A stretch of 64,000 bases of DNA from Octopus vulgaris. Taxonomy: Eukaryota. The position numbers were made by a program, and so were the translations under genes. Within the stretch, counting starts at the first letter, position 1, and each line of letters opens with the position of its first letter. The stretch is from the NCBI GenBank assembly GCA_951406725.2, contig OX597840.1, positions 23,622,001 through 23,686,000 of the forward strand. The letters are read 5' to 3'. Below the pieces are notes generated by a model. That model searched no databases. It was not told the DNA's origin and saw only the letters and a list, made by a program, of their open reading frames with translations. Shown in pieces: positions 34,322 to 64,000 of this stretch.

Positions 34322-34539
34322 TTACAAAGAAATTCGATTGAATTCTGATGATAAACATTCAATTGCAATGAAACATTCAGTTTTTTCAAGTGCTTCTTTT
34401 AATATTCGAAGTGTACGTTTTGCCGGATCACAACTTTGAACCCATGTCAGAAGCATCTGGAAACTTTGTTCCCTAACGCTATGAGAATGGTCAAGCTTGA
34501 TGATGTCCAGGTCATGTTGTTTAATTCCTAATTCCCTTC
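34322..34539 (-). CDS. Terminal exon, death domain GRELGIKQHDLDIIKLDHSHSVREQSFQMLLTWVQSCDPAKRTLRILKEALEKTECFIAIECLSSEFNRISL*
   Basis: Acceptor tatttcttttgcag|, phase 1; RELG, EQxxQMLxxW and TLxxLxxAL death-fold pattern; minus-strand AATAAA at 34070-34075. Confidence 0.88.
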
Positions 34540-36329
34540 CTGCAAAAGAAATAAGAAATAATTGCAACCGCATTAATGATAATATAAAATCTGTATTAAT
34601 TACGACAAAGAAATTATGTGAATAGAAGAGTGAGAGATACTTAAGAAACAGGTAAATTAGAAGACATTGTTATCTATTTCTAAAGATGTTGATAAAAATA
34701 CCAAAGAATTTGAAAAAAAGGCTGGAGAAGGAGAAGAATATTTAAAAAAAATTAATTGAAAATTACACATGAGAAAATGCCTGGTGAACAACTGGCAGAA
34801 GAAGTGTATGAGAGCCTAAAGAATCAACAAAGACCACCAATAGTTAGATAATTTTATCCATCTGTCCATCTTCTCTGGGCTCTATTCATAGGAGAGTTTT
34901 AGGGGTAGAGTCTTCAGGCACCTCCTTCATGCAATTCTATCAGAAGCAACCTTCATTAGAAGTTCTGAAAGGATTTCCAAACATGACCAATTGAAACTAT
35001 GGATATCATCCAACCATCTCATTCTTGCTCTACCCCTAGGTCTCCTGTCAGTTGGCTCAGCTTGAAGAATCCCTCTTGTGGTTCTTTCCTGTGACATTTT
35101 AATCACATGCCAGGAGTACTGGAGCTGTGAATTCTCAATGCAGAGAAGCAGTCGCTTGACCTGGAGAGACCCCAAATCTCCAGCCTGCACACCTTGTTGA
35201 GTAACGTTATTCCAGAGACTCTTTGGAGGAATACAATCTCAGTCGTTTGATAATGTCCTGTGATCAATACCTGAAATAGTCATTTGTGATGTCTTTCCAC
35301 CTATGATTAATAGAAATTTCAAAATTATCAACATTTAGAAATATTTCAAAAATGGGGATTGTGAACCTAAATGATTTCAACCACAGAAAGTAAAAATAAA
35401 ATACTGTTAGGTAAATATCACATATTATAGAGGGCACTGGTGTAAGGTTTTTGGATTCATGACTTATAACAAGAACTTCTTTCATTGGATCAAGGCCACA
35501 ATTTCGAAGAATTTAATACAGGAGAGGCCTTAGCAATGAGAAGAGTTTTAGTTTGTAGGCAATAAGACAAGAATCACCAACATCTACGTCATACACCTAC
35601 AACACTTGGGTCCTGAAAGAATCATTGCATCCACAAACAAGCAAGTTTACAGGGAGGGCAGGTTAAGGTTAGGAAAGGACTTTGTAAGTAGCAGATATAC
35701 AGGAATAGTTTGTAGTAGGAACAAGTAATAAAGACATAGTTGATAGTTTCTGTTATCTAAGAGACAGAATTAGAAGTGGAGGAGACTATTCTGAAAGCAC
35801 AGTAGTTAGAAGGAAAATGAGATGAAAAATGTACAGGGAGCTGTTAGGTCTACTGGCAACTAAGGGATTCTGTCTCCAAATGAAGGAGAGAGTGCAATGT
35901 TACATGGAATGTGGAGGATGCGTGGAAACAGGCAGGAAATGAGATGAGCACACATCACTAAATGTGTAATGTTAATGCGTTGAAAAATCTGTGATAGTGT
36001 ACAAGAAAAAAGATAATGGTATAGATATAGAAGGGACATGGAGGATGAAATTTGGATAAAGAAATGCCTGGCAATCAAGTTGAAGGAAACAAGCGATCAA
36101 ACTGGACAAAGGACCACAACAACTCTGGGAAGTCGTCTGACCATTACAAACTTAGAAAAATGGATGTAAGATGATGATGATAATGGACCTGGATTGATTT
36201 TTGCCCAGTATATGACTGGTACATCTTGTATGACTCCCAGAGGTATAGCAAGCTGGCAATGTTGTAGATGATGTCCTTTCTTAATTTAGATAAATCATTT
36301 CTGAGTGCGAACTTCCATGCTACATGGCA

Positions 36330-37080
36330 GTGAAACATGGGTCATGACTGCTGAGGACATGTTGGACATGAGAAGCTTTAAACGTGGTGTGTGAGAGAGA
36401 TGACTACGCTGGTATGGTCATGTATTACGTATGGATGAGGACAACTGTGTGAAGAAGTGCCACTTCCTAACTGTAGAAGGAACCTGTGGAAGAGGTATAT
36501 CCAGGAAGACATGGGATGAGATGATGAAGCATGGCCTTCGAACATTGGGCCTCACAGAGGCAATGACAGGAGACCAAGATTTGGGAAATATGCTGTGATT
36601 GAGAAAACCCGGCAACTAAAATGAGATCATAGCCATGGCCAATGCCAGTGTTGTATGTCCGGCCCATTCAAGAGCACCCTTGATGCATTGGGTGATATGA
36701 TATGCTTGAGAAGACCTGTTGAGTCAAGTAAAACCAAAATTGCAGCTGTGGCCAGTGCCCCCTGACTAGCCCCCGTTCTGGTGGCACATGAAAGCCATCA
36801 TCTGAATGTGGTCAATGCCAGTGCGATCTGACTGACTCCCTGTGTTGGTGGCACGTAAAAAGGACCATCCGAACATGACTGATGCCAGGACCACCTGACT
36901 GACTTCCATGCTGGCGGCACATAAAAAGCACCCACTACACACTCGGAAGGGCATCCAGCTGTAGAAACACTGCCAGATCAGATTGGAGCCTGGTGCAGCC
37001 ATTGGCTCTCCAGACTTCAGTCAAACCGTCCAACTCATACCAGCATGGAAAATGGATGTCAAATGATGATGATGATGATT
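36330..37080 (+). mobile_element. RTE LINE 3' end and UTR with (GAT)n tail
   Basis: LRWYGHVLRMDEDNCVKKC; same 3' UTR as 56500-57280 in the opposite orientation. Confidence 0.8.
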
Positions 37081-38047
37081 TATATCAGCTGACTCAGGGG
37101 ATATTATCATGATCTCTTGAGTCAAGTCTAGTCCCCAGTATAGCTCAAAAGTGCTTGTAAAGACGTTTCTCTATGCTGCAGTCCATCTAGATGTATATAG
37201 GTACCATAGGGAGGTAGAAGACATTGCTGTAAATAATAGGGGCATTGCTGTAAATAATAGTATAAATGATATTTTATGTTGTTAAACTGTCAGACAAGGG
37301 GAAATGGGATATTGTGATGTTCATGCCTTTCCATGTGACATTTGTAAAGTAAAGGAGAGTGAAATGATTTCAATTGAGAAACAAAATTGCGTTGAGTTTG
37401 AATTTTCTGTTGAGATTCTTTTTTTGTAATATAAGAATGTGTTTCATTAACTTACAATGCTGAGTTCAATCCAGCCATGAACACAATCAACAATGGGGCC
37501 TGTCTTCAATAAAGACAGGAAATATATTTTGACCTGGGACTAAAGAATTACAATAAATATAGAAAAACACAGATTGGCCAGGGGAGAGACGACATGTCCC
37601 ACACAATGCACACACCCATGTTAAAAAGTTTGCATTTGATAATGTGGTCCTCTTCACCCAAGAGAAAACATGATGGCACATCTGGAACCCTTTCCCCTTA
37701 ATTCTGCCAGATTAAGGGAGATATCTGCCTCAACCTACCAGTAAACTTACTAAAAGTGTAATCAAGCAAAAACATTGTCATTAATTCACCTGTTTACTCT
37801 TAAATGACAATATTTTTGAGTCCCCTTTTACAAATGACAGTATTAACTCTACTGTATCTCCTAATTTATACATTTTACAACTGTGCTGACGTCCGTAGAT
37901 ATTTTATGAAATTTCAGTGATAGCTTTACTGTATAGCTAAACTTTCAATTGGAAATTAGGAATGGAACCAGTTCTCAGTCATTCAAACAAACAAAAGTTT
38001 AGCTGAAAGCAAAATTTATAGAAATTAATTGGGTATTTTATACTCAC

Positions 38048-38119
38048 CAAGTTCCTGCTATTTACCTGCCAAGCTTCTGGACACCCAATGAAGATGCTTA
38101 TCCTCTAGCATTACAGAAT
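38048..38119 (-). CDS. Death-domain exon 1: DSVMLEDKHLHWVSRSLAGK*QEL(G), with an in-frame TAG at the conserved Trp position
   Basis: Acceptor atttatttcag|, donor G|gtgagt; 72 nt, phase 1 to 1; aligns to death-domain helix 1/2 (LGxDWxxLxRxLG); TAG = cta at 38058-38060. Confidence 0.8.
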
Positions 38120-39084
38120 CTGAAATAAATATTTCCAAATTTTACACTTCATAGCACAATTTCCCGATCTCTGTTAATGGTTTATATTTTATTATTGTAA
38201 GACATTCCTATCATCAATGGACAACTTCTGACCACTATAGGTTTGGTTAATAGATTTATATTTTCTACTGTGGTCTTATATAATGGCTCAATATTTAGGC
38301 CCATAGTAAAATAGTCTGACCTTCCTAAGCCTCCTTTTTCTATTAAGACATCCTACTTAATCTAACAATGTTGCAATCATCTCATTTAATTATCTTTTCT
38401 CTCTCTTATATCTGTGCTAAACCTATGACATGGCAGTGTCCCCTCACCACAGGACTTCACTAATCAACATTCCCCTCTTCTTTTGTTTAATTCTGATGTC
38501 AACCAAGCTGGTCATCAACGACCTTGACACAAACTCATGTCACACCTGTTATCTTTGTCAAACGTTGCTGCTTTTAATCTTTAATTTTAACTGTGCAACT
38601 CACAGTTCACCAGAATTTCATCTGATTCAGAAAATATCTAAAGACACCTTAATGAAATAGTTTCCTTTCCTGATGAGCAATGATTAGTTCTACACAGGTA
38701 AAACAGAAAGTGATAACAAGTATCCTAAAACTGTATACTTGCACAAAACATCTTAAATGAAACACAAATGTTCATACACTGATTATTGCAAAGGAAAAAT
38801 ATCTGAAATGGTATATAAGAAATGATATTCAAGAATATATAATCAAGGTGGTGATATAGATAACAATGAGATGAGAGAAAAGTGAATGTGTCTCATTATG
38901 GGGAGAGAATCACTTCAGGATTTATATTTTATCTTTTTTTCTATATTTTCCTTATCGTGAGGGACCTTTTTCCTGTGTCTCATGATTCCATATTTTGATA
39001 AAAATCCCTTTATTGTATATTCTTGCATTTGTAGGTAGTGAATAGAATTACTTTTATCACTAACCATTTGAAAGAAATGTAACA

Positions 39085-40230
39085 ATGGAACCTGTTCTCA
39101 GTCATTCACACAAATAATATATCTCAGGTGAAGGTAAAATTTATAGAAATCAATTACAGTTATTTTATACTCACCAACAGACTCTACAACCGTCTGGACT
39201 TCTTTCTCTTCAAACTTTGGACACACTGAAATAAGAATTGAAAATTAAGAATGGAACCTCTTCTCAGTCATTCACAAAAACAATATTTCTCAGGTGAAAG
39301 TAAAATTTATAGAAATCAATTACAGTTATTTTATACTCACCAACAGACTCTACAACCGTCTGGACTTCTTTCTCTTCAAACTTTGGACACACTGAAATAA
39401 GAATTGAAAATTAAGAATGGAACCTCTTCTCAGTCATTCACAAAAACAATATTTCTCAGGTGAAAGTAAAATTTATAGAAATCAATTACAGTTATTTTAT
39501 ACTCACCAACAGACTCTACAACCGTCTGGACTTCTTTCTCTTCAAACTTTGGACACACTGAAATAAGAATTGAAAATTAAGAATGGAACCTCTTCTCAGT
39601 CATTCACAAAAACAATATTTCTCAGGTGAAAGTAAAATTTATAGAAATCAATTACAGTTATTTTATACTCACCAATAGATTCTGAAACCGTCTGGACTGC
39701 TTTCTCTTCAGACTTTGGACACTCTGAAATAAGAATTGAAAATTAAGGATGGAACCTCTTCTCAGTCATTCACAAAAACAATATTTCTCAGGTGAAAGTA
39801 AAATTTATAGAAATCAATTACAGTTATTTTATACTCACCAATAGATTCTGAAACCGTCTGGACTGCTTTCTCTTCAGACTTTGGACACTCTGAAATAAGA
39901 ATTGAAAATTAAGAATGGAACCTCTTCTCAGTCATTCACAAAAACAATATTTCTCAGGTGAAAGTAAAATTTATAGAAATCAATTACAGTTATTTTATAC
40001 TCACCAATAGATTCTGAAACCGTCTGGACTGCTTTCTCTTCAGACTTTGGACACTCTGAAATAAGAATTGAAAATTAAGAATGGAACCTCTTCTCAGTCA
40101 TTCACAAAAACAATATTTCTCAGGTGAAAGTAAAATTTATAGAAATCAGTTACAGTTATTTTATACTCACCAACAGACTCTGCACCCACCTGGACTGCTT
40201 TCTCTTCAAACTTTGGACACACTGAAATAA
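39085..40230. repeat. 166-bp tandem repeat, about 7 copies (exon+intron unit), three sequence variants
   Basis: Exact 166-bp periodicity of the donor sites at 39175, 39341, 39507, 39673, 39839, 40005, 40171. Confidence 0.97.
39175..40221 (-). CDS. Seven 51-nt phase-1 microexons: 40171-40221 (VCPKFEEKAVQVGAESV); 40005-40055, 39839-39889, 39673-39723 (ECPKSEEKAVQTVSESI); 39507-39557, 39341-39391, 39175-39225 (VCPKFEEKEVQTVVESV)
   Basis: Each copy has acceptor ttatttcag| and donor G|gtgagta, no stop, and is in phase with the RING and death-domain exons; 115-nt introns. Confidence 0.8.
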
Positions 40231-41109
40231 GCATTTCAAAGTTTTATACTTCATAGTAAAATTTGTTTGTCTCTTTTAATAATCTATATTCCATTATTGT
40301 AAGGCATTCATATCATCAATAGTCAATTGGTGACCACTATGCTTTCAGTCAACACTTTCTAAGCTGTTACTGTATAATAGTAACAGCTGTATAATAGTAA
40401 CAGTAATATTTACAACCACAACAAAATAGGCAAACCTTTCTAAATCTCATCTTTCTCTTAAGACATCCTATATACTAATCTAACAATTCTGAAATTCTCT
40501 CATTCAGTTATCACTTCATAACACTCTTTTTCTCTTAGTTTTGTTGTTTCTTCTTATGTCTTTGCTGGACAAGTTTAACGCAAAATTTCACAGTGGTTAT
40601 TTGTTCCTGCTCATTAGAAAATTGCAGACTACAGCCTACAAATGACCACAAAAGCACAAATTTCATAACTTTTGAAGTAAATGCAGTGGTGTCACCCAGC
40701 ACACTGCCTCATGAAAGTCATTGCTAGCTCTCACTGTGCGTGCAACGATGTGCTGCCATCAGTTGGTATGCTACAGAACTAGTCCGTGAACTTTCTGATA
40801 CCACCTTGGAGCAATGACCAGGCTTCATGTTCGAATTAAAATGAATCAACTCAAAAGTAAAGCCAAAAGGTGAAAGAGTCAGAAAACAATGTCTTGTCTA
40901 GTATTAATCACATCTAAAAACTAACGAGTGTGAGTATAAAATGTCTAAAAACTAACGAGTGTGAGTATAAAATGGCAAACATTATAACAAGTGTTAATAA
41001 TATATAGTTACAAACAAGAAGTTGCATGTCTCCACTACAATATGAAGTGCATTATTCCATACCAGAAAGTTAATGAGACAACAGACGGATCAAGAAAGAA
41101 TGTTCTTAC

Positions 41110-41252
41110 CAAATCCACTTTTGCTGCGTATGTGTTGTTGACATATGAGGCATTGCTTAAATATCATTTGAGAACAGCAATTCTGACAAATAACAGTATG
41201 TTGACATGGATGGAGTGTGACAGTAGCCTTTTTCTCTTGACACCACCGACAC
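41110..41252 (-). CDS. C3HC4 RING finger exon CRWCQEKKATVTLHPCQHTVICQNCCSQMIFKQCLICQQHIRSKSGF
   Basis: Acceptor ttttgttccacag|, donor G|gtaaga; 143 nt, phase 2 to 1; all 8 Zn ligands present, with PCxH as in MIB/IAP-type RINGs. Confidence 0.92.
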
Positions 41253-42221
41253 CTGTGGAACAAAATATTAACACATCCCATCATTAACATTCATTTATAA
41301 TAAAATATTTCGTTGTGGACATGTTTAGAGTACAGAATATTAAGGGGAACAACAGTAACCAGCAAGAGTACATCGTAAATTCTTCTGTAAACAATTACAT
41401 ACAAGCAGATTTGTGTGTATACAAGTGTCACATTAACATACATATACAAGGGTGGGCTGAAAATATCAAAGGCTGACTAAGGTGCAGCCTTCCAACATGC
41501 CATCCCAGTCAAACAGTCCAATCCATGCCAGCATGGACAGCAGACGTTAAATGATGATGATGATGATGATGACATACACATTGTTAGTGTGTGTTTTAGG
41601 TTATTTTCACATGAAAGCGTACATGACAACTGATTGTGTCAGAGAAAAGAGAGAAAAAAAAATTGTTGGTAGACAGATAAATCCTATTTACTTCTAAATA
41701 GCAATTTCAAAATGTGTTCATTCACTTTATTATTTAGTACTACATTTTCATGGAGGTCACCGAACTCTAAAATAGTCAGGGGTGGATGGTGAGGTATATC
41801 AGTCAACACAAGCAATCATGTGAATGTCATCAAAATAGTGTTTTTTCGTTTGATCCACTAACAACTGTATTTTCTGTTTATTGTTCTTATTATTGTTGTG
41901 TGGTCTTAAGGCTGCAAGGTGGCAGGATCATTAGCACATGGAGCAAAATGCTTTCTGGCATTTCGTCTGCATTTACATGCTGAGTTCAAATTCAGCTGCG
42001 GTTGATTTTACCTTGCTGTTGATAAAATAAGTACCAGTTATCCCCTCCCTGACCTTGCTGGCCTTGTGCCAGAATTGGAAATCATTATTGTTGTCTTGAG
42101 TCAAGACACTAATGACGGAATAATACATTGGGAGAATTCAAACTAAATAAACATATAAACATGATTATATACAAAAGAGAAAATGTCCTGGTTTATCTTG
42201 TCGTTGCCAGTGAGTACTTAC

Positions 42222-42400
42222 AGTGATTGTAAAAATGTTTTTAATTTTTCTTTCAAATGTTGATTTTTTATGTAGTCCAATGGGGTCACTTTCTTCTTCT
42301 TATTACGATGGTATAAGCTGGCTCCTTGGCTGGCAAGATAACTCCCAACTACTATTCCAGAGAGCCTCCTATCCATGTCCAGTTGGAGCTCTTTGCAGCA
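42222..42400 (-). CDS. Exon CCKELQLDMDRRLSGIVVGSYLASQGASLYHRNKKKKVTPLDYIKNQHLKEKLKTFLQS (ankyrin C-cap, MIB-like)
   Basis: Acceptor tttcatcatttgtag|, donor CT|gtaagt; 179 nt, phase 0 to 2; YLAxxGAxLxxxN and TPLD pattern; not in ORF track. Confidence 0.88.
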
Positions 42401-43411
42401 CTACAAATGATGAAATATAAAACGATGAGTAGAATATTAGACAAATATATATTGTAGATAAACAAATCATGTCAAATGTAGGAAATATAATGGAAAAAGT
42501 ATCACAAATAACAGAACACAACAAACCAACAAGAACCTATCTTTACAACTGGTTTGATAAAGCCAATTGGCCATAACGAAAGAAATACTTATGGAAGAGT
42601 ATTGTATATATAAATATAACACAACAACATAACAACAAACAATGGCAAGCTACACTTTGTTACACAAAGGCCATTCTAATTACCATGGGGGTCGTCTGAT
42701 GGTCTATGGTCACTCAAGATTTTCTGTAATTCCTTATGGAGATTTTAACTGGTCGCGACAAGAAGTATTTTTTTAACAACATACATACTCCTACTTGAAT
42801 TTGTTTACCATCTGCAAAACTGCCATCAAAACTCAGATTTTTGACATCTTCAGATCTGCATCTATGAAAGCAGTCACCCATATTTTCCTACTGGTAATTT
42901 CGATAATCCAAATATTGATTGGGAAACGTTTCACTGGTCACAAAGTGCAACTCATTTCCATAACAACAAACAATGAACAGAGAACACCAAGAACATAATA
43001 ATTTCTTCAGACACAGCAACAAAACCAGCACCAGACAGACATATCCAAGCATATCAATAATGTTTCCAAAATTTATAAAGAAACATTTTTGGCTGATGAA
43101 GTGAAGTAAAGATTGGTGCGGTGGTTGAGGCAACACACCAACACATTATAGTCAAAAAATTGTTGAAACTGTTAGTCTGATAGACAATTCCTATAATAAT
43201 GGGTCGTTGACTTCTCGAGTAGCTTCTTCTCACCAAAGAAGACATTGCAACAATACATAGGTGACCATCAACTGTCTGAAATACAGTCACACATCTGTAG
43301 TGACCGTTACATATTTGGGAATCAAAGAGCTGCTTAAATTCTGCAACAACAGACAATAAACACCATCAGATCTAGCAGTGGATAGATGCTGAGGTCCTTC
43401 AAACAAACAAA

Positions 43412-43464
<53 letters not shown>

Positions 43465-44491
43465 GCACCTAGAAGTAGTTGATAGCTACTGTTATCTAGG
43501 TAATCAAGTCAGTAGTGGAGGTGGATGCGCCAAGAGCATAGCTGCAAGAATAAGATTAAGCAGGGCAAAGTTCAGAGAGCTTCTATCTTTGTTGGTAACA
43601 AAGGGCCTCTATGACTATCTGTCTAGTTACATTGTCATACATACAATCTCGTGACATCACACTTTTGTGTGCACATCTTAATGTAAATTCATTCTCATCA
43701 CATCTCCCTTCATTACAATTATTGCAAGGGGTATTACTGTAGTCAATATACACATAAAGTCCAAGCCATGGCAATATTTGGAATCCTAATTATCAACTTT
43801 GAATAAACTCAGTTATATATTCATTATCATACTGATAAAAGAAACTTTCTTCGAAGTCCATGAATATATATTCTTTAAATTTAATTGTCCATAAACGAAT
43901 TTATTTTCCTTTTCCTTTCTTTGAAGAAGAATAATGAAATATGCTTTCTAGCAATTAACACAGTTCAACTCGTTTAACTTGAAATTCGATATTTAAAACA
44001 GTTTGTGAATTTCTCTTTCTTAAATTTAAAGACTTATCTCTGTCGTTGGTCACCTCTCCTTCATACAGTGATGGCAGTGTTTACATGACACATATTTAAG
44101 ATGGGTTACCTTCTTTACAGTGGAGTGGCCATGCTTTTGAAGGTGAAAGAAGATGGAATATTGTTAGTTACATAATACAACTAGTGCTATCAGGAGAAAC
44201 TGAATTATTTAATACTAAAGAAGAGAAGTGGATGGGAGTGAAAGAAAATAGCAAACAATGTCTGCCTGTTTCTCTATTTTTCTCTCTTTCTCTCACTCAC
44301 ACATACACACATCTTCATCATCATTTTACATTCGTTTTCTATGCTGGCATGGGTTGGATAGTTTGGCAGAAGCTGGGCAGCTGCAGAGCTGCTCAAGCAC
44401 CAATTGCCAGTTTTGGCATAGTTTCTACGGTTGCATGCCCTTCCTAATGCCAACCACACACACATATTCACAAACAATTTTACAAACTTAC

Positions 44492-44704
44492 CTCATCTAA
44501 AATGGGAATGGGTTCCACCTCAGAATGGAACATCTCTTTCTTTATTATGGAGAGGTGCAAACAATTATTGCCATCCTTGTCGACAGCATTCATATTTGCA
44601 CCATGTATAATAAGTTTATGGATTATTCCGAGGTGGGCCCTGGAGACGGCTTTCAGCAATGGTGTTATTTTCTTATGATTCCCAATATCCAGTTTCACTG
44701 AATC
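44492..44704 (-). CDS. Ankyrin exon DSVKLDIGNHKKITPLLKAVSRAHLGIIHKLIIHGANMNAVDKDGNNCLHLSIIKKEMFHSEVEPIPILDE
   Basis: Acceptor ttacttccgcaaag|, donor GAG|gtaagt; 213 nt, phase 0 to 0; resembles the last ankyrins of MIB proteins. Confidence 0.9.
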
Positions 44705-45615
44705 CTTTGCGGAAGTAAAAATAGAAATTGAAAATGTACATGGGATATGTGTTAGGGACATGATAAATCTATTAAGAGGTCTTAAACAGATTGTTTCAGC
44801 CTAATCTATATTTATCTCTCACTAAAGTAAATTTTAGGGGAGCAGAACAAGAGTGAACATATAATTAGCAGATCAAAACTAGTAAAGAAGAATTATGATG
44901 TTGCTATATTAATAAGGGGTTCATAAAACAGGTGAGTTGGTTAGTGTCCACATCTTTAACATTCCTGTACATACACACACATATACATGAATGTTATGGA
45001 AGTGAGATACACACAAACATATATATATATATATAGATATATTTACACACATATATATATATATATATACATACAGGAGTGGCTATGGTAAATAGCTTGC
45101 TTACCAACCACATGATTCCGCGTTTAGTCCCACTGCATGGCACCTTGAGCAAGTGTCTTGTACTATCATCTCGGGCTGGCCAAAGCCTTGTGAGTGGATT
45201 TGGCAGACAAAAACTGAAAGAAGCCCATCGTATATGTGTCTGTGTTTGTCCTCCCAACATTGCTTAACAATCGATGCTGGTGTGTTTACATCCCTGTAAG
45301 CTAGCGATTTGGCAAAAAGGATCAACAGAATAAGTACTAGGCTTACATAGAATAAGTCCTGGACTCGATTACATGTTGTGGCGAGAGTCACAAGTCGCAT
45401 GCAAGAACAGACTTGACTGAATGACTATGAATAGTAGCAGTCTGAGTGAGAGACTAGAGAGAGTAGGTGTTAATTGCAGGAAGTCGTAAGGTGTTGTTTT
45501 CATTGTTTGTTGGTTTGTGTATGGATTGTTGTTGTTACCCTGATTTGTAATATATTTTATTGTTACTACAAGGTTATAGTGTAAACAGTATCATGTCATA
45601 ATAATTGGTGATACA

Positions 45616-45664
<49 letters not shown>

Positions 45665-45952: not shown

Positions 45953-46042
45953 ATCTTACGATCGTTTCGCAAAAGGGTTGACCCTATAATTAAGTCCTAT
46001 GTTGATAAGCACTTATAGACAACCCTTCTCCTCTTCAGAGAT
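45953..46042 (-). ncRNA. Type I hammerhead ribozyme
   Basis: Minus strand: auct CUGAAGA G[gagaagggttg...caacccttttg]C GAAA CGAUC GUA agau; intact core, long stem II, palindromic stem III (ACGATCGT), GUA cleavage triplet. Confidence 0.75.
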
Positions 46043-48800: not shown

Positions 48801-48837
48801 CTGGGCCAGCATCAACGATACCACACCATAATGTTGC
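48801..48837 (-). CDS. 37-nt exon (K)QHYGVVSLMLAQ completing an ankyrin repeat
   Basis: Acceptor ctctttgtataactttcag|, donor CAG|gttagt; bridges phase 2 to phase 0 exactly and supplies helix 2 after GDTPLHLAVQK. Confidence 0.82.
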
Positions 48838-51090: not shown

Positions 51091-51956
51091 TTTTGAACTG
51101 CCAGATGGAGAGGAGTGTCACCATCATTGTCCACTTTATTGGCATCGATGCCATTTTGTTGTAGGAGAAGTTTAGCTGTGTCTGTGTGTCCTTTCACACA
51201 GGCATGATGTAGAGGTGTCCAGCCACTGTTGGTCACCACCCTCACATCAGTGCCATTTTGTTGTAGGAGAAGTTTAGCTGTGTCTGTGTGTCCTTTCACA
51301 CAGGCATGATGTAGAGGTGTCCAACCACTGTTGGTCACCACCCTCACATCAGTGCCATTTTGTTGTAGGAGAAGTTTAGCTGTGTCTGTGTGTCCAGCCT
51401 GACAGGCAAGATGTAGAGGTGTCCAACCATCGTTGTCCACCACCCTCACATCAGTGCCATTTTGTTGTAGGAGAAGTTTAGCTGTGTCTGTGTGTCCATT
51501 CTGACAGGCAAGATGTAGAGGTGTCCAACCATCGTTGGTCACCACCCTCACATCAGTGCCATTTTGTTGTAGGAGAAGTTTAGCTGTGTCTGTGTGTCCA
51601 TTATACGAGGCAAGATGTAGAGGTGTCTGACCATATTTGGTCACCACCCTCACATCAGTGCCATTTTGTTGTAGAAGTTTAGCTGTGCCTGTGTGTCCAT
51701 TATATGAGGCAAGATGTAGAGGTGTCCAACCATCGTTGGTCACCACCCTCACATCAGTGCCATTTTGTTGTAGGAGAAGTTTAGCTGTGTCTGTGTGTCC
51801 ACGATAAGAGGCAAGATGTAGAGGTGCATGACCACTGTTGGTCACCACCCTCACATCAGTGCCATTTTGTTGTAGGAGAAGTTTAGCAGTGTCTGTGTGT
51901 CCATGAAGTGAGGCAATATGTAGAGGTGTCCAACCATCATTATTTGGCTGAGTGAC
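51091..51956 (-). CDS. Single exon with 8 full near-identical ankyrin repeats (102-bp, 34-aa unit; one 33-aa unit) plus the start of a ninth
   Basis: Acceptor atcttttttag|GTC, donor AA|gtaagt; 866 nt, phase 0 to 2; unit GxxPLHxAxxxGHTDTAKLLLQQNGTDVRVVxxx. Confidence 0.95.
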
Positions 51957-54600: not shown

Positions 54601-55453
54601 CTTCTATTTCGTCAAAGGCTTTGAGTAATAGGTCTGTGTGAAGAAAATTTAAAATTAAAAAAATATAAACTGTTTAGAGAAACTGCTGAACAAATAATTT
54701 CCATTTTGTGAGACCATTTCCAAAAGACCACCCATTTTTCAATGAAATTTAACAGAAATCCACCCTTTTCCATGTTGTAGCAAACAATTATGTCTGGATT
54801 GTCAGAAAGAAAGTGAAAAAGTGAGTGTTGTGGGAGGAGGGGTATTGATCTGCAACTCATCAAAGTTATTTATTTTATTACCATAATCATCATCTACATA
54901 CAAGGAAATGAGCAACTTTCGAAAGAGTCCCCCCGCCACCACCATTTTCTCCTAAATTTGTTTATTTAAAAAAATTTTTTGCCGGAAAATTGCCAAAAAT
55001 CAGCAGTGGAATTTCCACCCCCTCCCAAATTCTTCAACTCTGACGTTTTTTCCCCAACACTAACCCTAACCCTAACTATGGAAATGTTTTGAAATTTTTG
55101 ACCGAATCATCATCTCCGTATTTTTCCGCATATTCTGAAAAAAAAAATTGTGAAAAAAGTAAAGAATGAAGGAAATAGAGATGGGGGGGTAATTTAAAAA
55201 TGCCGATTTTTGCCAATTTTTATGCAGATTCATATTTCCCTTAACCGAAAAGCGGGATTTGTGTCAGGGGGTGGTTTTTTTGTGGGGTACAAAAGGAAGT
55301 CTTGCAGCAACTTTTATTTAAAAAAATATGAATCATCAGTTATGAGGAAACAAAATTTGGGGCACTAAACTGTATGTATATATCATATACATATAACACA
55401 CAAATACATATATATACATATCTATATACACAAATATAAATGCATTCGCTAAC

Positions 55454-55610
55454 CTGCAAAATGTTATTTCCTTTGCTACTTAACAGGACTTTGACTACAT
55501 CTTCATAGTTCTTCCTCACAGCCCGATGTAGAGGTGTGTTGCCCCATGAGTTCTGCTTATTAACATTTGCTCCCCTGGAGACTAAGAAGGCCACAGCATC
55601 AATTTTACGG
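55454..55610 (-). CDS. Ankyrin exon (S)RKIDAVAFLVSRGANVNKQNSWGNTPLHRAVRKNYEDVVKVLLSSKGNNILQ
   Basis: Acceptor ttcttcctttcag|, donor CAG|gttagc; 157 nt, phase 2 to 0; GANVN and GNTPLH motifs. Confidence 0.9.
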
Positions 55611-55769
55611 CTGAAAGGAAGAAAAAAACATAAAACATCACAGACATTCACTTAACAATTACATTAAATATACACTCATGTTCAATTAAACGCATAAAAA
55701 CCAATATATATTACAGCTGCGTGTGTATATATATATATATATATATATGTCTGTGTGCGTGCATGCCTG

Positions 55770-56489
55770 TATAGACATAACTACACAAGTGTGCTCCCCC
55801 GACGAATTTGTTTCCCTGTAACTTCTAGGAAAAATGGATATTTTTTCATGAAATTTCTTTCAAAAATATGCTTCAGAAGGCGAAGATTCCATTTATATTG
55901 GAATTTATTGTGAGAAAAAATTTTTAGTGGGTGCAGAGAGAAATTTGGTAAAGTTCACCCGAGTCAGCTTTCTTTCCCAAAAAATAAATATTTTCTAATG
56001 AAATTTTCAATAAAACAGTTTCAGATGGTGAAGATTCCACTTACATTGGAATTTAATATGAAGAAAATTTTAAAAACTTGGTGGATTCGCAGAGATATAC
56101 ACTGATACACATCACAAACTGAAAAGATGAACTTTGGAAAAATAACCGTGATGTGTCTCAGTATATATGTTTGTGTATCCACCAAATATTTAACGTTTGT
56201 TCATGTTAAATGCCAATATAATCTTAATCTAATCCATTTGAAAGGGATTTGTAGAAATTTTCACACAAACAAAATATCCATTTTTCTGAAAGTTTCTATA
56301 AGGATTTAAGTCAACTTCTCAACGTTTGAAAATTTGTTTTCACAACAAATTCCAATATAATTGGAATCTTCATCATCTGAAGCATTTTTGTCATAGAAAT
56401 TTCATTAAAAGATATCCATCTGTCTAAAAGTTATAAGGTTATAAGGAAACAAATTCGTCGGGGGTCCCAGTTGTGTAAGTATGTCTATA
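55770..56489. mobile_element. Fold-back/MITE DNA element with long imperfect TIRs
   Basis: atagacata..cccccgacgaatttgtttcc is mirrored by ggaaacaaattcgtcggggg..tatgtctat; the inverted similarity extends inward over more than 100 bp. Confidence 0.8.
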
Positions 56490-56499
56490 TATATATCAT

Positions 56500-57960
56500 C
56501 ATCATCATCATCATCATCATTTAACGTCCGCTTTCCATGCTAGCATGGGTTGGACGGTTCAACTGGGGTCTGGGGAGCCCGAAGGCTGCACCAGGCCAGT
56601 CAGATCTGGCAGTGTTTCTACAGCTGGATGCCCTTCCTAACGCCAACCACTCCGAGAGTGCAGTGGGTGATTTTATGTGCCACCGACACAGGTGCCAGAC
56701 GAGGCTGGCGAACGGCCACGCTCGGATGGTGTTTTTATGTGCCACCGACACAGGTGCCAGACGAAGCTGGCGAACGGCCACGCTCGGATGGTGTTTTTAT
56801 GTGCCACCGACACAGGTGCCAGACAAGGCTGGCAGACGACCACGCTCGGATGGTGTTTTTATGTGCCACCGACACAGGTGCCAGACGAGGCTGGCAAACG
56901 GCCACGCTCGGATGGTGTTTTTATGTGCCACCGATACAGGTGCCAGACAAGGCTAGCAGACGACCACGCTCGGATGGTGTTTTTTTTTTATTTATGTGCC
57001 ACCGACACAGGTGCCAGATTAGGCTGGCGATCGGCCACGATTGGATGGTGATTGTTACGTGCCCACAGCATGGAGGCCAGTCGGTGCGGTACTGGCTACG
57101 GCCACGTTCGGATGGTTTTCTCGGCACTGGTACCACAAGATACAAATTCCATTGATGTTCATCTATTTTAATTTTGTTTGATTTTCACTTGCCTCAACAG
57201 GTCTTCACAAGTGTCACAAGAAGGAAGGTATGCACAGGTGGACTGACTACGTCCCAGGTAGGGGCCACGGGTTATGGCCTGACTAGTCTTGCCGGGTCTT
57301 CTCACGCACAGCATACTTCCATAGGTCTCGGTCTCTAGTCATTTCCTTGGTGAGACCTAAAGTTCGTAGGTCGTGCTTCACCACTTCGTCCCAGATTTTC
57401 CTGGGTCTACCTCTTCCACAGGTTCCCTCAACTGCTAGGGTGTAGCACTTTTGCACACAACTATCTTCAGCCATTCTCGTCATATGACCATACCAGCGCA
57501 GCCGTCTCTCTTGCACACCACAACTGACGCTTCTTAGGTTCAACTTTTCTCTCAAGGTACTTACACTCTGACGATTATGAACACTGACATTACACATCCA
57601 TCGGAGCATACTGGCTTCATTTCTTGCGAGCTTACGCATATCCTCAGCAGTCACGGCCCATGTTTCACTACCATGTAGCATGGCTGTACGTACACATGCA
57701 TCATAAAGTCTGCCTTTTACTCTGAGCGAGAGGCCTTTTGTCACCAGCAGGGGTAAGAGCTCTCTAAACTTTGCCCAGGCTATTCTTACTCTAGCAGTTA
57801 CACTTTCAGCACACCCACCCCCACTACTGACTTGGTCTCCTAGGTAGCGGAAGCTATCAACTACTTCTAGTTTGTCTCCCTGGAACGTGGTAGCAGTTGG
57901 TCTCTGCATATTTCCAGTGTTTATTTCTCCTGAGCATCTGCCACATACGAAAACTATGTC
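56500..57960 (-). mobile_element. RTE-clade LINE 3' end with a 61-bp tandem repeat (about 6 copies, 56670-57060) in its 3' UTR and a (GAT)n tail
   Basis: 243-aa ORF with LEVVDSFRYLG and RRLRWYGH, GRGRPRKIW; tandem unit tttatgtgccaccgacacaggtgccagacgaggctggc; tail at 56497-56520. Confidence 0.9.
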
Positions 57961-58019
57961 TATATATATATATTTGTAAAAAATGAAGTTTGAAAATGCT
58001 GCTATATTAGACAAATTTT

Positions 58020-59359
58020 TGATTTTTATATATACATTATTTATTTAACATGTTTCGGTTCTTGAAATGACGAACCTTATCAAAAAAAATTTATATATAA
58101 AAAAGATAGTTCATGCTATCAAATATAAAAAATTCATATATAATAAAAAATTCATATATAGTGGAGCGAGTCCATGCTATATGTTTAAAGAGTATGCAGT
58201 AGTAGTTCATAGTGGTGATATGCATTCAATATAAAAAATTCATGTTCTTGAAAAAGCGAGGAATTCATTTTAGGTTTTACCTTGTGTTCCAATGGGAGCA
58301 ACTGTGATGACTGTTGGTTGGTGTCTGTTCGAATAGTTCTGGTGAATCTTGTGAAATGTTTGGGTTTTATATCACCTGTTAGGTGGCTAGTCCAGCGGAA
58401 CGGGACGTCATCAAAGTTTTGACCAATCGTCTCATTAGGTGGCTAGTCCAGCAGAACGGGACGTCATCAATGTTTAGACCAATCAGAATCGGGTCTGACC
58501 CTTAGCTGTATCGTATGTGGAAACCGACCAAGCAGGGTGACAATAGATTGTCCACTGAGGTAATACATCAGTGGACAATCTATTCTCACAAAGGCAAAAT
58601 TGTCTTCTAAAATTACGGATGCAAAAGTAAAAAAATGTGGTAGATCGAACTGTGCAACATGTCCTAACCTATTGGAAGGATCTGAATTCTTCTTTAAAGA
58701 GGGACAGAAATTCAAGATCAAATCTAACTTTACTTGTGCCTCTGAAAACATAATTTATGTCATTAAATGCTCGGGCTGCCACCAAGACTACGTGGGTTCC
58801 ACGGGACTATCACTCAGGCGTAGATGCACACTGCATCGACAACAGATTGCATTCCCAGAATATAGAATGATACCTTTTAGTGAGCACATTGAGAAATGCG
58901 CAAAGCAACTACTGCCACAATTTTTAATCTTCCCATTTTACCAATGTGCTTTCGGATCATCAACACAAATGAGACTGAACAAGGAAACATTCTTCATTGA
59001 AAAGTACAAACCCAGACTCAACCATCCGAACATACTGACACAGAGAAATTAACAAGGGAAAGGAAAAAAATTTTTAAGCGATTATCTCCCTTACACCGGA
59101 AGAAATCACTCACTACCTCCCCTTATTTAGAAATCTCCTGAAAATAAACACAACGATAACTCCATGCAATATAAACATAACGTCACAAGAAATTTGAAAA
59201 GCTACACGCGAAACTGGTAATTTCTTTAAAAATTTTAAAATTATGTCATTTTAAGGAAAGGAAAAAGAATTTTTCCAATATTCTCCAGACATTTTGACAC
59301 AAATATATATATTTTTTAACATTTAAGCCTTCTGTCGTTTTTTCACACTTTACTATTTT

Positions 59360-59360
<1 letters not shown>
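58020..59360 (+). mobile_element. Penelope-like element remnant: GIY-YIG endonuclease ORF (58600-59052) preceded by a probable inverted segment
   Basis: CGRSNCATC, NIIYVIKCSGCHQDYVGST, RRRCTLH, EH and E..FI..YKPRLN, the typical Penelope GIY-YIG layout; 17-bp inverted repeat at 58542-58584 marks a strand-switch junction. Confidence 0.85.
58041..58090 (-). ncRNA. Hammerhead-like motif with a U3-A8 core variant in the Penelope terminal region
   Basis: Minus strand: TTGATAA GGTTC-loop-GAACC GAAA CATGTTA; weak stem I. Confidence 0.45.
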
Positions 59361-59413
<53 letters not shown>

Positions 59414-59495
59414 TATATATACCACCGGTTCATATCGCTAGTTGAAATGTCAAAGTCAATAATCTTATATAGGTCTATATGTGTATGTATATATA

Positions 59496-59534
<39 letters not shown>

Positions 59535-61943
59535 ATATGTATGTATGTATATGTATATATATATATGTATGTATATAGAGAGACAGACAGACAGAGAAAT
59601 GTGAGCCACTGAAATACGTATAATTGTTAATACACAGTAAACAAATATGTACATGTGTGTGTATACACATATTAATAGGTGAGGGTATAAAGTATAAATA
59701 TTTTTATCCCAGCGAGTGTACAATACAAAACAAGGATTAAGTACCGTTGTTAGTATCTACATATTTGGTATACATTGAAAAATATATTGTAATCCTTTTG
59801 CGAAAGATGGAATGTCTGAAAATTATAGACAAACTAACTGATAGCAGATTTCTCATCAATCTAAAAAAAAAAAAACATCAGCAGCACGTCGTAATTGGCG
59901 GCAAAACTACATCTGCAAATGTAATGTTGTCATAGCAACAGACTATGCAAGAGAAAGTTTGTTGTTAAGGGCAACGAGGCATATTTTTACCGCCAAAAGA
60001 AACAGTGACCAACAAGGAAGTATGGCGGTCATATAACACACATAAATGAATTTATAAACACACCCATATTTATTATATATGTGTGTGTGTACATATATAT
60101 ATATATGTGTGTGTGTATATATATATATATATCTATGTGTGTGTGTGTGTGTGTATAAGCTAAACTTCAGTGTTTGACTTGAGCAAAAAAAATTGTGCAA
60201 TAGGTGTAAAATAAAATGTAGTAAACGAATATGTAAAAAAAAAATACGCATTGGTGAACGAGGGGTGGTGGAGACGACTCGGAAAATTCACATGATCAAT
60301 CTCACAGGGTCCGAAAACTCAACGTTAACATCGTTTACTACATGTTGTTTTACACCTATTACACTTCTTGTTTTCATTTTTAGGACCGGTTGTCGAGTGG
60401 GGTTACCGGATCGTGTGAATCATCCGAGTCCGCACCACACCCACCCACACCATCACAAAAATTGAACAAAAGTAGAGTACCGGGTGTAAAATAATGTGTA
60501 AAAAATGAAAATAAAGAACAAAAAATTCGCCGACGAATGGGGAAGTGGTGAGATTTGAATTTTCCGAGTCGTCTCCCCACCTCCTGTTCGCCATATTTTT
60601 TTTCCATAGGCGCAGGAGTGGCTGTGTGGTAAGTAGCTTGCTTACCAGCCACATGGTTCCGGGTTTAGTCCCACTGCGTGGCACCTTGGGCAAGTGTCTT
60701 CTACTATAGCCTCGGGCCGACCAAAGCCTTATGAGTGGATTTGGTAGACGGAAACTGAAAGAAACTCGTCGTATATATGTATATATATATATGTGTGTGC
60801 GTGTGTGTTTGTGTGTCTGTGTTTGTCCCCCTTGCATTACTTGACAACCGATGCTGGTGTGTTTATGTCCCCGTCACTTAGCGGTTCGGCAAAAGAGACT
60901 GATAGAATAAGTACTGGGCTTACAAAGAATAAGTCCCGGGGTCGAGTTGCTCGATTAAAGGCGGTGCTCCAGCATGGCTGCAATCAAATGACTGAAACAA
61001 GTAAAAGAGTAAGAGTATTCGTTTACTACATGTTGTTTCACACCTATTGCACTATTTTTTCCTTTTTTCTTTGCTTGGGCCAAACAAGATTTTAACCTAG
61101 TGTTTCCCTCCTCTGTCTTCTTCATCTGAAGGAGCCATGTCCCTCTTCTAATGCAAGACACCTTTCTCTCCAGCAATATTAGCTCCCCCACCTCACCACC
61201 TCAACCAGTCGAGAGGTCTTTGTCTCGCAATTAATTGGTGACCTCACTGGTTCTGATGGCATGTAAAAGGCATCCAGTACACTCTGCAAAGTGGTTGGTG
61301 TTAGGAAGGTCCTCCAGCCATAGAAACCAAACCAAAGCAGACAGTAGTGTTTGGTGTGGTCTTCTGACTTGTCTGTTCCTATCAAACCCTCCTACCCATG
61401 CCAGCATGGAAAAGGAACATTCGATGACGATGATGGTGTGTGTGTGTTTGTGTGTTTGTGCAAAATTCTGGAACAATTTGTGACTGCAGAACCTATAGAA
61501 ACTAACAAGAACTTCAAAACATGTTTTATTGTCCAGAGATGACCTTATGAAGCACAATTCAAAATATAATAGATCTCAAAATGTGTTGAGTTGCTGATGG
61601 AGATGAGAAATAATTTCTGTAAGAAATTTACAGATTATTTACTGCCAAAACAAGCTTGAGAATCTTTCTTGTTGCTTTAGATCTCAAATAACATTTTCTT
61701 TGGAGAAAAATTGATCGATCTCTCCATAATCAATATGAAGAGAAGACACTGAATCACACTGGGTCAATCTTAAGAACTTTTGGATCTCAAAGAATATCTC
61801 CAAAACAAAAATAATCTGTTTTGACAACAAATAACGAAAAAGATTTTGGTGATTCAATGAAGATGATTCATGGAGAAAATGAGAAAAAGATGTTATTTCA
61901 AAACAAAAGCAGATCTGAAGATTTTAGTTAATTCAAGCCTTAC

Positions 61944-62095
61944 CTATACACAGCATAATGTAATGCTGTCAGACCTTCTTTGTCACTCATGTCCATATTG
62001 GCTCCAGATTCTATCAAGAAGGCTATTAGACTTGTGCTGCCCTGTTCACAAGCTGCCATTAAGAAAGTTTTACTGTCAGAATCTATTTGGTTAAC
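61944..62095 (-). CDS. Ankyrin exon VNQIDSDSKTFLMAACEQGSTSLIAFLIESGANMDMSDKEGLTALHYAVY
   Basis: Acceptor tctttcttttcttcag|, donor AG|gtaagg; 152 nt, phase 0 to 2; GxTALHYA ankyrin motif; not in ORF track. Confidence 0.9.
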
Positions 62096-63359
62096 CTGAA
62101 GAAAAGAAAGAGAAGATATATAAAATATATCAAAGGAGAGAGATTTTAGTTCAGTATTCCCTGGTAAAGCTCATGAAATTCTACTCTGTGTTATCACTGA
62201 TGTCTGGCATAGTAGCACTTTTATTTAATGCTATAATGATGAAGGAGATTTAAGAAATGGTGAGAGAAGAACAGGATGTTTGAAATGAAGCATGGATCTT
62301 CAGATGTCATATGTCTGGTGAAACAGCAACGTGGGATCTACTTGGAAAAGAATGAAAGCAAATCTACAAGAAAGGTGTAGAGCACAGGTAAATCAAGGTG
62401 TAACAGGTAAACAGGTAAATAAAGACTGTTTAGTTCATGCATAAGCTCAAGGAAAAGATTGAAAATCTATTTATGTTAGTCACTGAATCTATTACAAAGT
62501 AATTAGACATCTGTGACATCGGTGGAACGACACCAATCACAACTAAATATGAGCAACTATGGAAAAGTAGACACAAATAAAAAGAAACAATGGAGAAAAT
62601 AAGAAATATTATGAAAGTAGGGATCAGAATTTTGAGCCTAAATGCGGCAGCAGTATCAGGGCTTACATTAGTTTGTAGCCATATAATATTTAAAAAGGTG
62701 TGAGTGGTTCATACACAACTGTATTACAGCTGTACAAACAACACTATTGACTTCTCCTTGAGGAAAACACCTACCCTCACTAACTGGCAGACATTCACCC
62801 ACCATTGAAATACAATATATGATGGTCATCAAAAAATAAAAGGATGTTTTTTCTGCATTTCACCATTTGTCAGCTGTCTTCCCTCCCAAATTAAAAGCCG
62901 CATTTTCTGGTCTCTTACCTAGAGTATCTCTATAGATTTTACAGAATCATTCCACCCACCACTCCCTAACCATGATGGTTCTATACCAGTGCTTCTTAAA
63001 CGTTTCAATTATGGCCCTTTTTTATTTACTAAGAGTTTTTCAATGCCCCTTTTCTTGCTATGATTCAATATCTCTGATTTTTAATGTTCTCACAGGTCAG
63101 ATTAATTTACCTTTGGGTCCTAGTCTTGACATGGGTGACTACTTACCACAGCACCATCCCACAATAAGTGAACATTTGATGCATCACCACTTCACTTTAG
63201 TTTCTGATCCAAACTCAACTACACATTGAGTTTTATATATTTGTACCACCACAGCCGCCTTGGCTCCCTGGTCCATATAAAATTTTCCACAAACCCTACC
63301 CAAGGGTAGCACTACTCTCTTAGAGAAGCCCTGTTTTATAATTCTTGCTGATAGTGTCC

Positions 63360-63780
63360 TATCTGCTGACTACCAGCCAGTCATTCTAACTTCCAATATT
63401 TCAATTATGAAGTAAAAAGTCATAAACAACCATCATCTTTGTCCCTTTGGGTATCTTTCTCTATTCAATGAGCCCCAGTACAGTTCCATAAAGCCGGTTC
63501 AAGCAGGGGTCTGATTCCTACATGACTCCCCAGTGTTTTGGTTATGTTTGACAACTTCTGCAAAAGAAATACTGTAGCTCTTGACGTCGGTAAAACCTTT
63601 AACTGTGTATGGCAAGAGAATTTCTTGACAAAGTCATCATTTATCTATTGGGTCCATCTGTCCCCCATCTCTTGGACTGAATATTTCCTGCCAGAATACT
63701 CCATTGCAGTGTGTGAGGATGGGTTTCTCTCTCACTCACATTCCATCAATTCTGGCATGCCTCATTGTCTGGTTGAATAT
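63360..63780 (+). mobile_element. Degraded CR1/Jockey-type RT fragment
   Basis: VALDVGKTFNCVW resembles ALDISKAFDRVW; INSGMPH resembles INSGVPQ. Confidence 0.65.
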
Positions 63781-63938
63781 TTATAAAAAGTGACAATGAT
63801 GAGGATTAGAGGAAAGAGGTAAAGAAAGAAATGAAATATTATGGACAAATATACCTGGTTATTTAGGAACATTTAATATTGTGTATAAAATAATAAACAA
63901 ACATTCAACATTGAAGAAGCAATATAAAGTAAACTTAC

Positions 63939-64000
63939 TTTATCAGGATTTTCTTTGATAAGTCGTTCAACATCTTCAAAGTCTCCATTCTGAATCTTGC
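63939..64000 (-). CDS. Partial exon KIQNGDFEDVERLIKENPDK (start of ankyrin region, MIB-like)
   Basis: Open frame ending at donor GATAAA|GTAAGT, phase 0; joins the next exon in frame. Confidence 0.75.

Follow-up and report, generated by a model that had tools for sequence, protein, structure and literature searches.

The window analysed here, a 64,000-nucleotide stretch of the 2.8-Gb Octopus vulgaris genome (C27:23622001-23686000; feature coordinates below are window positions), carries a minus-strand gene with the domain order ankyrin repeats (ANK, about 15)-RING-(17 aa)x7-death domain (DD). The gene belongs to a multi-copy octopus family that, by its exon structure, is derived from the Mind bomb protein MIB2, and the concave ankyrin face of this family is, according to counting tests, diversifying on a near-fixed scaffold together with changes in repeat number. 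The reading that we favour by a modest measure is that intact members are variable cytosolic sensor-ligase-adaptors, still diversifying and likely engaged in defence; the immune role is read from the evolutionary pattern only. The window copy itself is probably either a member disabled a short while ago or a decoy, and has probably just lost both outputs (RING and death domain).

Seventeen exons and 16 introns were assembled, with GT-AG boundaries in 16/16 introns and an unbroken chain of phases. The start ATG is located 22 bases past the window end (position 64022 in extended coordinates), and the N-terminus that it provides agrees with that of annotated paralogs. Pfam searches of the spliced protein returned ANK in exons 2, 3, 4 and 6, zf-C3HC4_3 in exon 8 (E 3.6e-9, over the cut-off) and Death in the last exon (E 7.4e-7). 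Two tandem arrays were detected, one of 166 bp x 7.0 containing seven 51-nt exons and one of 102 bp x 7.8 corresponding to the large ankyrin exon. An earlier note on this DNA had claimed that scattered fragments splice into one phase-consistent multi-exon gene with ankyrin, RING and death domains, and the model borne out here has the following parts:

63939..64000, minus strand: exon 1 (3' part; ATG outside the window), N-terminal ankyrin cap (phase chain; same N-terminus in annotated paralogs)
61944..62095, minus strand: exon 2, ankyrin repeats, phase 0 to 2, counterpart of the 149-nt MIB2 exon (Pfam, intron phases)
55454..55610, minus strand: exon 3, ankyrin repeat, phase 2 to 0, 157 nt here and in MIB2, binding face diversifying among paralogs (Pfam, rate tests)
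51091..51956, minus strand: exon 4, variable ankyrin array of 8 near-identical 102-bp (34 aa) repeats and one further TPLH motif, framework near-fixed, binding face hypervariable (Pfam, tandem-repeat scan)
48801..48837, minus strand: exon 5, 37-nt half repeat, phase 2 to 0 (phase chain; loose end to exon 6)
44492..44704, minus strand: exon 6, MIB-type ankyrin repeats, phase 0 to 0 (Pfam, contig joint, MIB2 intron match)
42222..42400, minus strand: exon 7, MIB-type C-terminal ankyrin cap, phase 0 to 2 (contig joint, Foldseek, MIB2 intron match)
41110..41252, minus strand: exon 8, C3HC4 RING (= MIB2 first RING), reads CLICQ (Pfam, MIB2 intron match)
39175..40221, minus strand: exons 9-15, seven 51-nt phase 1-1 spacers in a 166-bp tandem unit, at 40221-40171, 40055-40005, 39889-39839, 39723-39673, 39557-39507, 39391-39341 and 39225-39175 (tandem array, phase chain)
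38048..38119, minus strand: exon 16, death-domain exon A, 72 nt, phase 1-1 (phase chain, contig joints)
38058..38060, minus strand: premature TAG at a conserved death-domain Trp, codon 750 of 826, private to the window copy (paralog comparison)
34322..34539, minus strand: exon 17, death-domain exon B, carrying the natural stop (Pfam, contig joint; the TNFR1 death domain is the best sequence match among solved structures, E 1.8e-4)

Splice joints were sought in RNA-type contigs, that is, in contigs from runs whose RNA nature is guessed from the label and which carry no tissue labels. Exon 6 was joined to exon 7, and exon 7 to the RING exon, in 3/3 such runs, with no such row in run X15 (kind not on record, looks genomic). 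Joints from the RING to a spacer, from a spacer to DD exon A and from there to DD exon B were also recovered, the last with a short side of merely 22-28 letters, and the joint between exons 5 and 6 was shown by one loose end of 17 letters. The read-based joints span exon 5 onward; the four 5'-most joints rest on contiguity in annotated paralogs. Because the contigs, where distinguishable, bear paralog-type letters, these joints speak for the family, and transcription of the window copy itself is not established by them. Intronless retrocopy arrays on C1 hold exon 6 through the death domain together, which is separate evidence for a single family mRNA containing these exons; contig joints, retrocopies and annotated paralogs all place the death-domain exons in the same family transcript and not in another one. 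Of the junctions predicted in the earlier note, those named above were recovered from reads, and the joint behind exon 16 uses a donor other than the one that an open frame through the death domain requires. An ESM Atlas search gave no usable match, and an Rfam scan of the window gave no match.

MIB2 is identified as the parent of the family since the intron phases match those of the C26 gene at 7/7 introns and the exon tree joins the family to it. The C26 gene is a two-RING Mind bomb with two MIB_HERC2 matches and has exons of 149, 157, 155, 127, 210, 176 and 197 nt in phases 0-2-0-2-0-0-2-1; family exons 2-8 (152, 157, 866, 37, 213, 179 and 143 nt) have the same phases. A tree built from exons 6-8 (37 rows) joined the family clade (100/99) to C26 MIB2 at 95/94, the bootstrap being not fully settled, and the top Foldseek match for the ankyrin region was the MIB1 ANK structure (8V0E). 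The last MIB2 exon (coiled coil and terminal RING, phase 1) is exchanged at the same junction for phase-1 spacer and DD exons. This gene structure shows an origin by loss of the N-terminal ligand-binding region of MIB2 and replacement of the terminal coiled-coil RING exon. On the tree of exons 6-8 the DD label needs 2-3 changes, and a single gain of the DD is not proven; copies with both RINGs and no nearby DD match at C26:0.92-1.19 Mb, C20:45.04-45.06 Mb and C27:36.35 Mb are evolutionary intermediates. The earlier assignment as a Mind bomb derivative is thereby upheld and narrowed to MIB2.

Compared with Mind bomb proteins, the gene retains ankyrins with the MIB-type C-cap followed by the first RING. 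The MZM/REP region at the N-terminus is gone (the ATG opens straight into ankyrins), as is the terminal coiled-coil RING, its place being taken by spacers and DD; with two defining regions missing, the family is by composition not a Mind bomb ligase. No MIB_HERC2/ZZ exon was present among open frames of at least 55 aa in the 60 kb upstream, and the 10 genome matches of PF06701 (MIB_HERC2) are on C26, C13, C16, C9 and C4 only, with none at the window gene. The family also differs from MIB2/MIB1 in having at least 64 copies instead of one and a variable number of ankyrins. MIB1 was rejected as the parent: the C13 gene, of which three ankyrin exons but none of the later exons could be located in 80 kb, has its introns at other positions in those three. 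An IAP origin of the RING was likewise rejected: the best PDB matches are cIAPs, but exon phase and position follow MIB2. According to the literature, it is the terminal coiled-coil RING of human MIB1 alone that carries out ubiquitin transfer and dimerisation, and no partner is known for the conserved concave face of the MIB1 ankyrins (bioRxiv 2024.03.01.582834); human MIB2 ubiquitylates RIPK1 and cFLIP (PMC7815719). On the human MIB1/MIB2 data, the family has thus retained precisely the MIB parts that are dispensable for Notch signalling.

Match counts in the genome, which are lower bounds, came to at least 80 for the RING exon and at least 133 for DD exon B, mostly on C29 and C31. A DD match followed within 30 kb downstream on the same strand for 64 of the 80 RINGs (controls: 1 upstream, 3 on the other strand), and the family has at least 64 RING+DD loci. 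All matches in three protein searches (11/11, 33/33 and 3/3) were from Octopus, with members in three Octopus species. An all-protein profile search gave 136 new representatives, 21 of which pair the DD with RING or cap; the 7 of these that were looked up were all Octopus, and the non-octopus matches looked up were matched through the death domain alone or were MIB-like proteins without DD. As far as databases reach, the ANK-RING-DD family is restricted to Octopus, as the earlier note had supposed in calling it lineage-specific, and it is not a conserved single-copy bilaterian gene; squid and cuttlefish may merely be thinly represented in these databases. The architecture had also been described as hidden, which does not hold: paralogs with Pfam ANK+RING+Death are already in NCBI/UniRef. 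It is a new architecture made from known parts, and the public entries for its members bear automatically assigned names like 'MIB2-like' or 'RF_0381'. No paper describing such an octopus family was found in a literature search that did not extend to subscription papers and supplements (genome-paper supplements may list an expanded orthogroup), and MIB2 combined with octopus gave one unrelated listing. The decapod RING expansion of PMC13218726 was rejected as the same family, being absent from octopods according to that source.

The window copy is a genomic duplicate that retains its introns, with about 2-5% intron divergence from six C29 paralogs. It was rejected as an allele of a C29 gene, its introns being about 2-5% from each of these six close paralogs and none clearly nearer. 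A 100-base N gap (scaffold join) is present at window 5366-5465, and the placement of the window copy on C27 may depend on it. The retrocopies on C1, at 102.72 Mb (L128) and 216.93 Mb (L129), form tandem arrays of decayed intronless copies of the family 3' half (exon 6 to death domain).

Diversification of the binding face was examined in the array exon and in exon 3. Array length ranged from 4 to 14 repeats among nine close genes. Fifty-nine of 64 repeats passed the filter, and 50 internal repeats (45 distinct) were compared; the filter itself fixes G, PLH, GH and a stretch of the helix that follows, and the rates exclude the six codons overlapped by the DNA anchor. Repeat positions 3, 5, 10, 13 and 14 carried 5-8 amino acids each among the 50 repeats, with 37 surface combinations among the 45 distinct ones, whereas most framework codons were fixed, even at silent sites; the repeats of the window copy match their own consensus at 89%. 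The proportion of nonsynonymous differences (pN) was 0.40 at five pre-chosen positions versus 0.05 elsewhere. Exon 3 is single-copy and offers a cleaner test than the array. At its five pre-chosen binding-face codons (12.3 sites), 16 changes were counted among 18 paralogs, which is 2.65x what the intron shows (P=7.5e-4), and its other codons changed at 0.39x the intron rate; pairwise pN at the binding face was 0.33 versus an exon-wide proportion of synonymous differences (pS) of 0.037. All of these are counting tests and not recombination-aware. As judged from them, the family shares binding-surface diversification and copy-number variation with diversified immune receptor families. Ankyrin array, spacer and death domain were found to vary separately across paralogs, in line with the three variable modules of the earlier note.

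The RING exon changes at 0.39x the intron rate, with no changes at zinc ligands, Pro and Arg in 17 paralogs, and by this measure the RING is under purifying selection. As in active RING E3 ligases, the eight zinc ligands are present and invariant in these 17 close paralogs, and Pfam recognises zf-C3HC4_3. The first RING of the parent MIB2 reads CIQCK, and the best solved RING matches are cIAP1/2, which read CPICR. A ligase role is suggested by the CPxCR of the family and not by Mind bomb ancestry. At C30:5122000-5131999 (L134), at least 8 tandem copies of a RING exon with flanking intron form a possible cassette array of alternative RINGs.

All of the window spacers (7/7) carry a K-x-V-Q-[TV] motif, and they lie in a low-confidence region that is probably disordered. 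Seven genes have from 2 to 7 spacers each, and the lengths of RefSeq isoforms change in steps of 17 aa. Homology was detected between the introns flanking the spacers and the introns around DD exon A (scores of 256 and 129.5 versus shuffle maxima of 130.5 and 62; the exon itself scored within shuffles), and in two paralogs decayed 72-nt copies of exon A lie between the spacers and the working exon. The spacer exons are thus traced, through their flanking introns, to a death-domain exon. With regard to clients of the dimeric hub LC8, the motif was found 19 times in 1,083 spacer aa versus 0 in 11,150 other aa (shuffles mean 0.4), in a variant, charge-rich form of the anchor; an LC8 x spacer complex prediction scored 0.32 (mark 0.34) and counts neither way. 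In paralogs L099, L103, L104 and L110 some spacer variants have CPxC in place of CPKF/CPKS and have lost the motif Gln, which suggests a second, possibly zinc-bridging type.

The death domain of the family is a complete helical domain, recognised as Pfam Death in 19/23 aligned members and predicted with a model confidence (pLDDT) of about 80-90 in two paralog models; TNFR1, Fas, TRADD and RIPK1 are closest among solved structures. The DD cassette differs in 3/6 close paralogs that share the 5' half of the window copy, a pattern that indicates swapping of death-domain cassettes at the spacer array. DD exon A changes 3.4x faster than its own intron, and exon B has a fixed core. No NACHT/NB-ARC was found in Pfam scans of 23 members and no BIR in scans of the window protein and 23 members; on domain content the family is neither NLR nor IAP. 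A leucine-rich repeat (LRR) adhesion G-protein-coupled receptor (GPCR) of O. bimaculoides (P0152/P0199) has a death domain of this type at its end (37% to P0018 over 142 aa; similar Ser/Gln spacer), and one DD-bearing GPCR is mentioned in PMC6408891. A DD exon B with the same phase-1 acceptor is located at C2:151947860, with a GPCR exon 21 kb away on the opposite strand, linkage not being established. This receptor and the family may share a cassette or be receptor partners.

The window copy departs from the family at the RING and at the death domain. Its RING reads CLICQ, versus CPxCR in 29/29 paralogs examined, owing to a Leu in place of the Pro and a Gln in place of the linchpin Arg, both private to this copy; the loop-2 Pro and linchpin Arg of active RING E3 ligases are thus absent. 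The linchpin Arg stabilises E2-ubiquitin (PMC12326332), although Arg at this position is not universal among active RINGs. The exon ending at donor 38048 includes a TAG (38060-38058), where the same codon is TGG (Trp) in 29/29 paralog loci (30 of 40 matches were fetched, one of which was the window copy). The earlier note had drawn a single reading frame through the death domain. Such a frame is open only with a cryptic donor at 38066 (CAG/GTAAAT; frame kept), and it was rejected: donor 38048 was used by the joint listed in 3/4 runs, with 15/23 joints shown at 38048 and none at 38066, and the fetched proteins had the canonical junction in 42 cases and the cryptic junction in none (the sole pattern match was a model without exon A). 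The TAG with its donor seen in RNA-type contigs leaves the window copy without a complete death domain.

It is improbable that the TAG is an assembly error or minor allele, or that the cryptic donor is used, and that this copy makes a full-length protein. No reads of the window locus were resolved at the TAG, the sequence CAG/GTAAAT is a plausible frame-preserving donor and the remaining frame is intact; against this, two more private changes strike functional RING residues, the paralogs possess the same cryptic donor yet the listed RNA-type joint bypasses it, and its use would remove the core Trp of death-domain helix 2. If the window copy is taken as disabled, it has by all signs not been dead for long, since 1 disabling change was seen versus about 8-9 expected had it drifted like introns since duplication (P 0.002 and 0.0008; the intron indel rate is inflated by microsatellites and possibly assembly error). 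Its exons diverge more than its introns from the C29 paralogs at 29.50 and 29.59 Mb (5.2% vs 3.3% and 4.6% vs 2.9%; exons 1-3, 5-8 and 16-17). The TAG sits 10 nt upstream of the last junction. Under the 50-nt rule, a truncated ANK-RING-spacer protein could still be made, either acting as a decoy or being the product of a young pseudogene.

In the mechanism that we propose for intact members, the ankyrin face would bind a fast-changing target, probably a foreign or pathogen-modified protein, and the RING would recruit E2-ubiquitin via CPxCR. The KxVQT spacer may bind LC8, which would restore the dimerisation lost with the coiled coil and could be adjusted through the number and the skipping of exons. 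Through its death domain the complex would dock on assemblies of the TNFR/RIPK1/FADD type, with NF-kB signalling or cell death as the outcome.

Several observations weigh against this reading, beginning with the variation itself. At the array binding-face codons pS is also raised, to 0.18 (minimum counts 2.26 and 2.28 per site), the repeats are not independent, and conversion tracts or local mutation may contribute to their variation; the excess in exon 3 is not significant in the smaller group of 9 genes (P=0.21). DD exon B has a dN/dS near 1.1, not above 1, and several paralogs carry frameshifts or stops. The raised silent variation, these lesions and the broken window copy would suit a mostly neutral birth-and-death process, in which segmental duplication and gene conversion in repeat-rich chromosomes generate copies and the variable sites reflect relaxed constraint. 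This explanation is already disfavoured and highly improbable: pre-chosen surface codons exceed the intron rate while framework and RING are conserved, exon 3 is open in 29/30 copies and DD exon B in 19/20, the window copy has far fewer disabling changes than drift predicts, and the family is present in three Octopus species.

Other adverse points concern the RING and the spacer. CPxCR is present in only 18/32 annotated family proteins, and a second RING subfamily has His to Asp at a zinc ligand in 12/12. MIB1 RING1-2 gave no self-ubiquitination (bioRxiv 2024.03.01.582834), and the first RING of MIB2 is dispensable for cFLIP (PMC7815719). With 14/32 proteins lacking CPxCR and a retained RING that is inactive in human MIB1, members could be non-catalytic sensor-adaptors, the RING being a structural relic as in MIB1 and signalling occurring only by bringing targets to death-domain assemblies. 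We consider this unlikely, because Pro and Arg are invariant in the 29/29 paralogs examined, the RING is under purifying selection and the change from CIQCK to CPxCR is toward active RINGs such as cIAP1/2. The designation 'ubiquitin ligase' in the earlier note is putative: it draws on the conserved CPxCR of the family and not on Mind bomb descent, and the window copy has lost both the Pro and the Arg. As for the spacer, strict LC8 motifs occur in just 9/32 proteins and in non-independent repeats, and the motifs of the window copy are rich in charge, with no strand breaker at +2. Lys at -3 fits the anchor rules, but many anchor-bearing peptides fail to bind LC8 (PMC6607443).

Diversifying selection does not name the opponent. 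An arms race against endogenous elements or in self-recognition (the opponents being transposon or zinc-finger proteins, or factors of the germline or gametes) instead of one against pathogens is rather unlikely. The intronless C1 retrocopy arrays imply germline transcription, and the window copy and a C29 paralog lie beside C2H2 zinc-finger arrays and long interspersed nuclear elements (LINEs); the death domain, nearest TNFR1/Fas/TRADD/RIPK1, points instead to immune or death signalling, with no direct evidence for an endogenous target. A defensive role is consistent with the same evolutionary pattern (diversifying near-identical ankyrins) marking fungal NLR non-self receptors (PMC4986451). 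Oysters have expanded BIR-DD-RING proteins, and Octopus IAPs are few and least expanded (PMC8917759).

A more far-reaching version, which we regard as doubtful, sees the family as a natural library of designed-ankyrin-repeat-protein (DARPin) type: 60-130 cytosolic receptors made from MIB2, whose paratopes are reshuffled within one exon and whose silent RING has become a ligase. LC8-binding exons born from a DD exon would set the oligomer state via copy number and splicing, DD cassettes would be swapped to rewire the output, possibly to the DD-bearing LRR adhesion GPCR, and DD-less copies would be decoys.

Five known systems were compared with the family beyond MIB2/MIB1. TRIM5alpha and the fish finTRIMs follow a similar logic, combining a variable binding domain under positive selection with a dimerising spacer and a RING and being expanded in clusters; the octopus family differs in having no B-box, coiled coil or PRYSPRY, with ankyrins and a death domain instead. 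DARPins are randomised at positions 2, 3, 5, 13 and 14. They share a fixed ankyrin scaffold with variable residues around GxTPLH and before GH, as seen in solved DARPin sequences, whereas the octopus array is natural, has a 34-aa repeat and is also variable at position 10, mildly so at position 2 and fixed at position 33. The randomised surface of DARPins is the concave one (PMC8229355). Fungal NLR-like receptors with conserved ANK repeats (Podospora; PMC4986451) share near-identical repeats, number variation, concave-face diversification and effector-module swapping, but the octopus family is an animal, MIB2-derived one without NACHT/NB-ARC and with a RING and C-terminal death domain. Oyster BIRC11-type IAPs (BIR-DD-RING; PMC8917759) and cIAP1/2 resemble it as expanded molluscan proteins with a recognition module, death domain and cIAP-like RING; the octopus proteins lack BIR, have the order ANK-RING-DD and by exon position take their RING from MIB2. 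Multivalent LC8/DYNLL partners with TQT boxes (PMC6607443) are matched by seven K-x-V-Q-[TV] motifs at 17-aa spacing in a probably disordered region, but the octopus motif is VQT not TQT, charge-rich and followed by a +2 Val, and LC8 binding is putative.

The family is a concrete, testable candidate that bears the evolutionary marks of a recognition repertoire. To our knowledge, cephalopods lack adaptive immunity. Known octopus gene expansions are mostly of protocadherins, C2H2 zinc fingers and GPCRs, and our literature search turned up no large diversified intracellular receptor family of cephalopods. The family also records the birth of a signalling architecture, with intermediates, phase-matched exon replacement, spacers recycled from a DD exon and the swapping of cassettes. 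Should the first RING prove active in this family, a Mind bomb pseudo-RING has been turned into a working ligase.

The surroundings of the gene are rich in other elements. Arrays of 84-bp C2H2 zinc-finger units on both strands (window 8685-9778, 15373-16122 and 23768-24897) adjoin it, and similar arrays flank a C29 paralog. A 696-aa frame at window 29252-31342 (minus strand), which we take to be the reverse transcriptase of a LINE, is common to the flank of C29 paralogs, and an open frame inside intron 2 (window 58564-59052, plus strand) is presumably GIY-YIG-like. At 33-39 kb past the window end (L004, C27 about 23.719-23.725 Mb) an inverted partial copy of the gene (exon 6 and intron pieces, 96-97% identical) is split by an open 720-aa frame, which we assume to resemble a hAT-type transposase.

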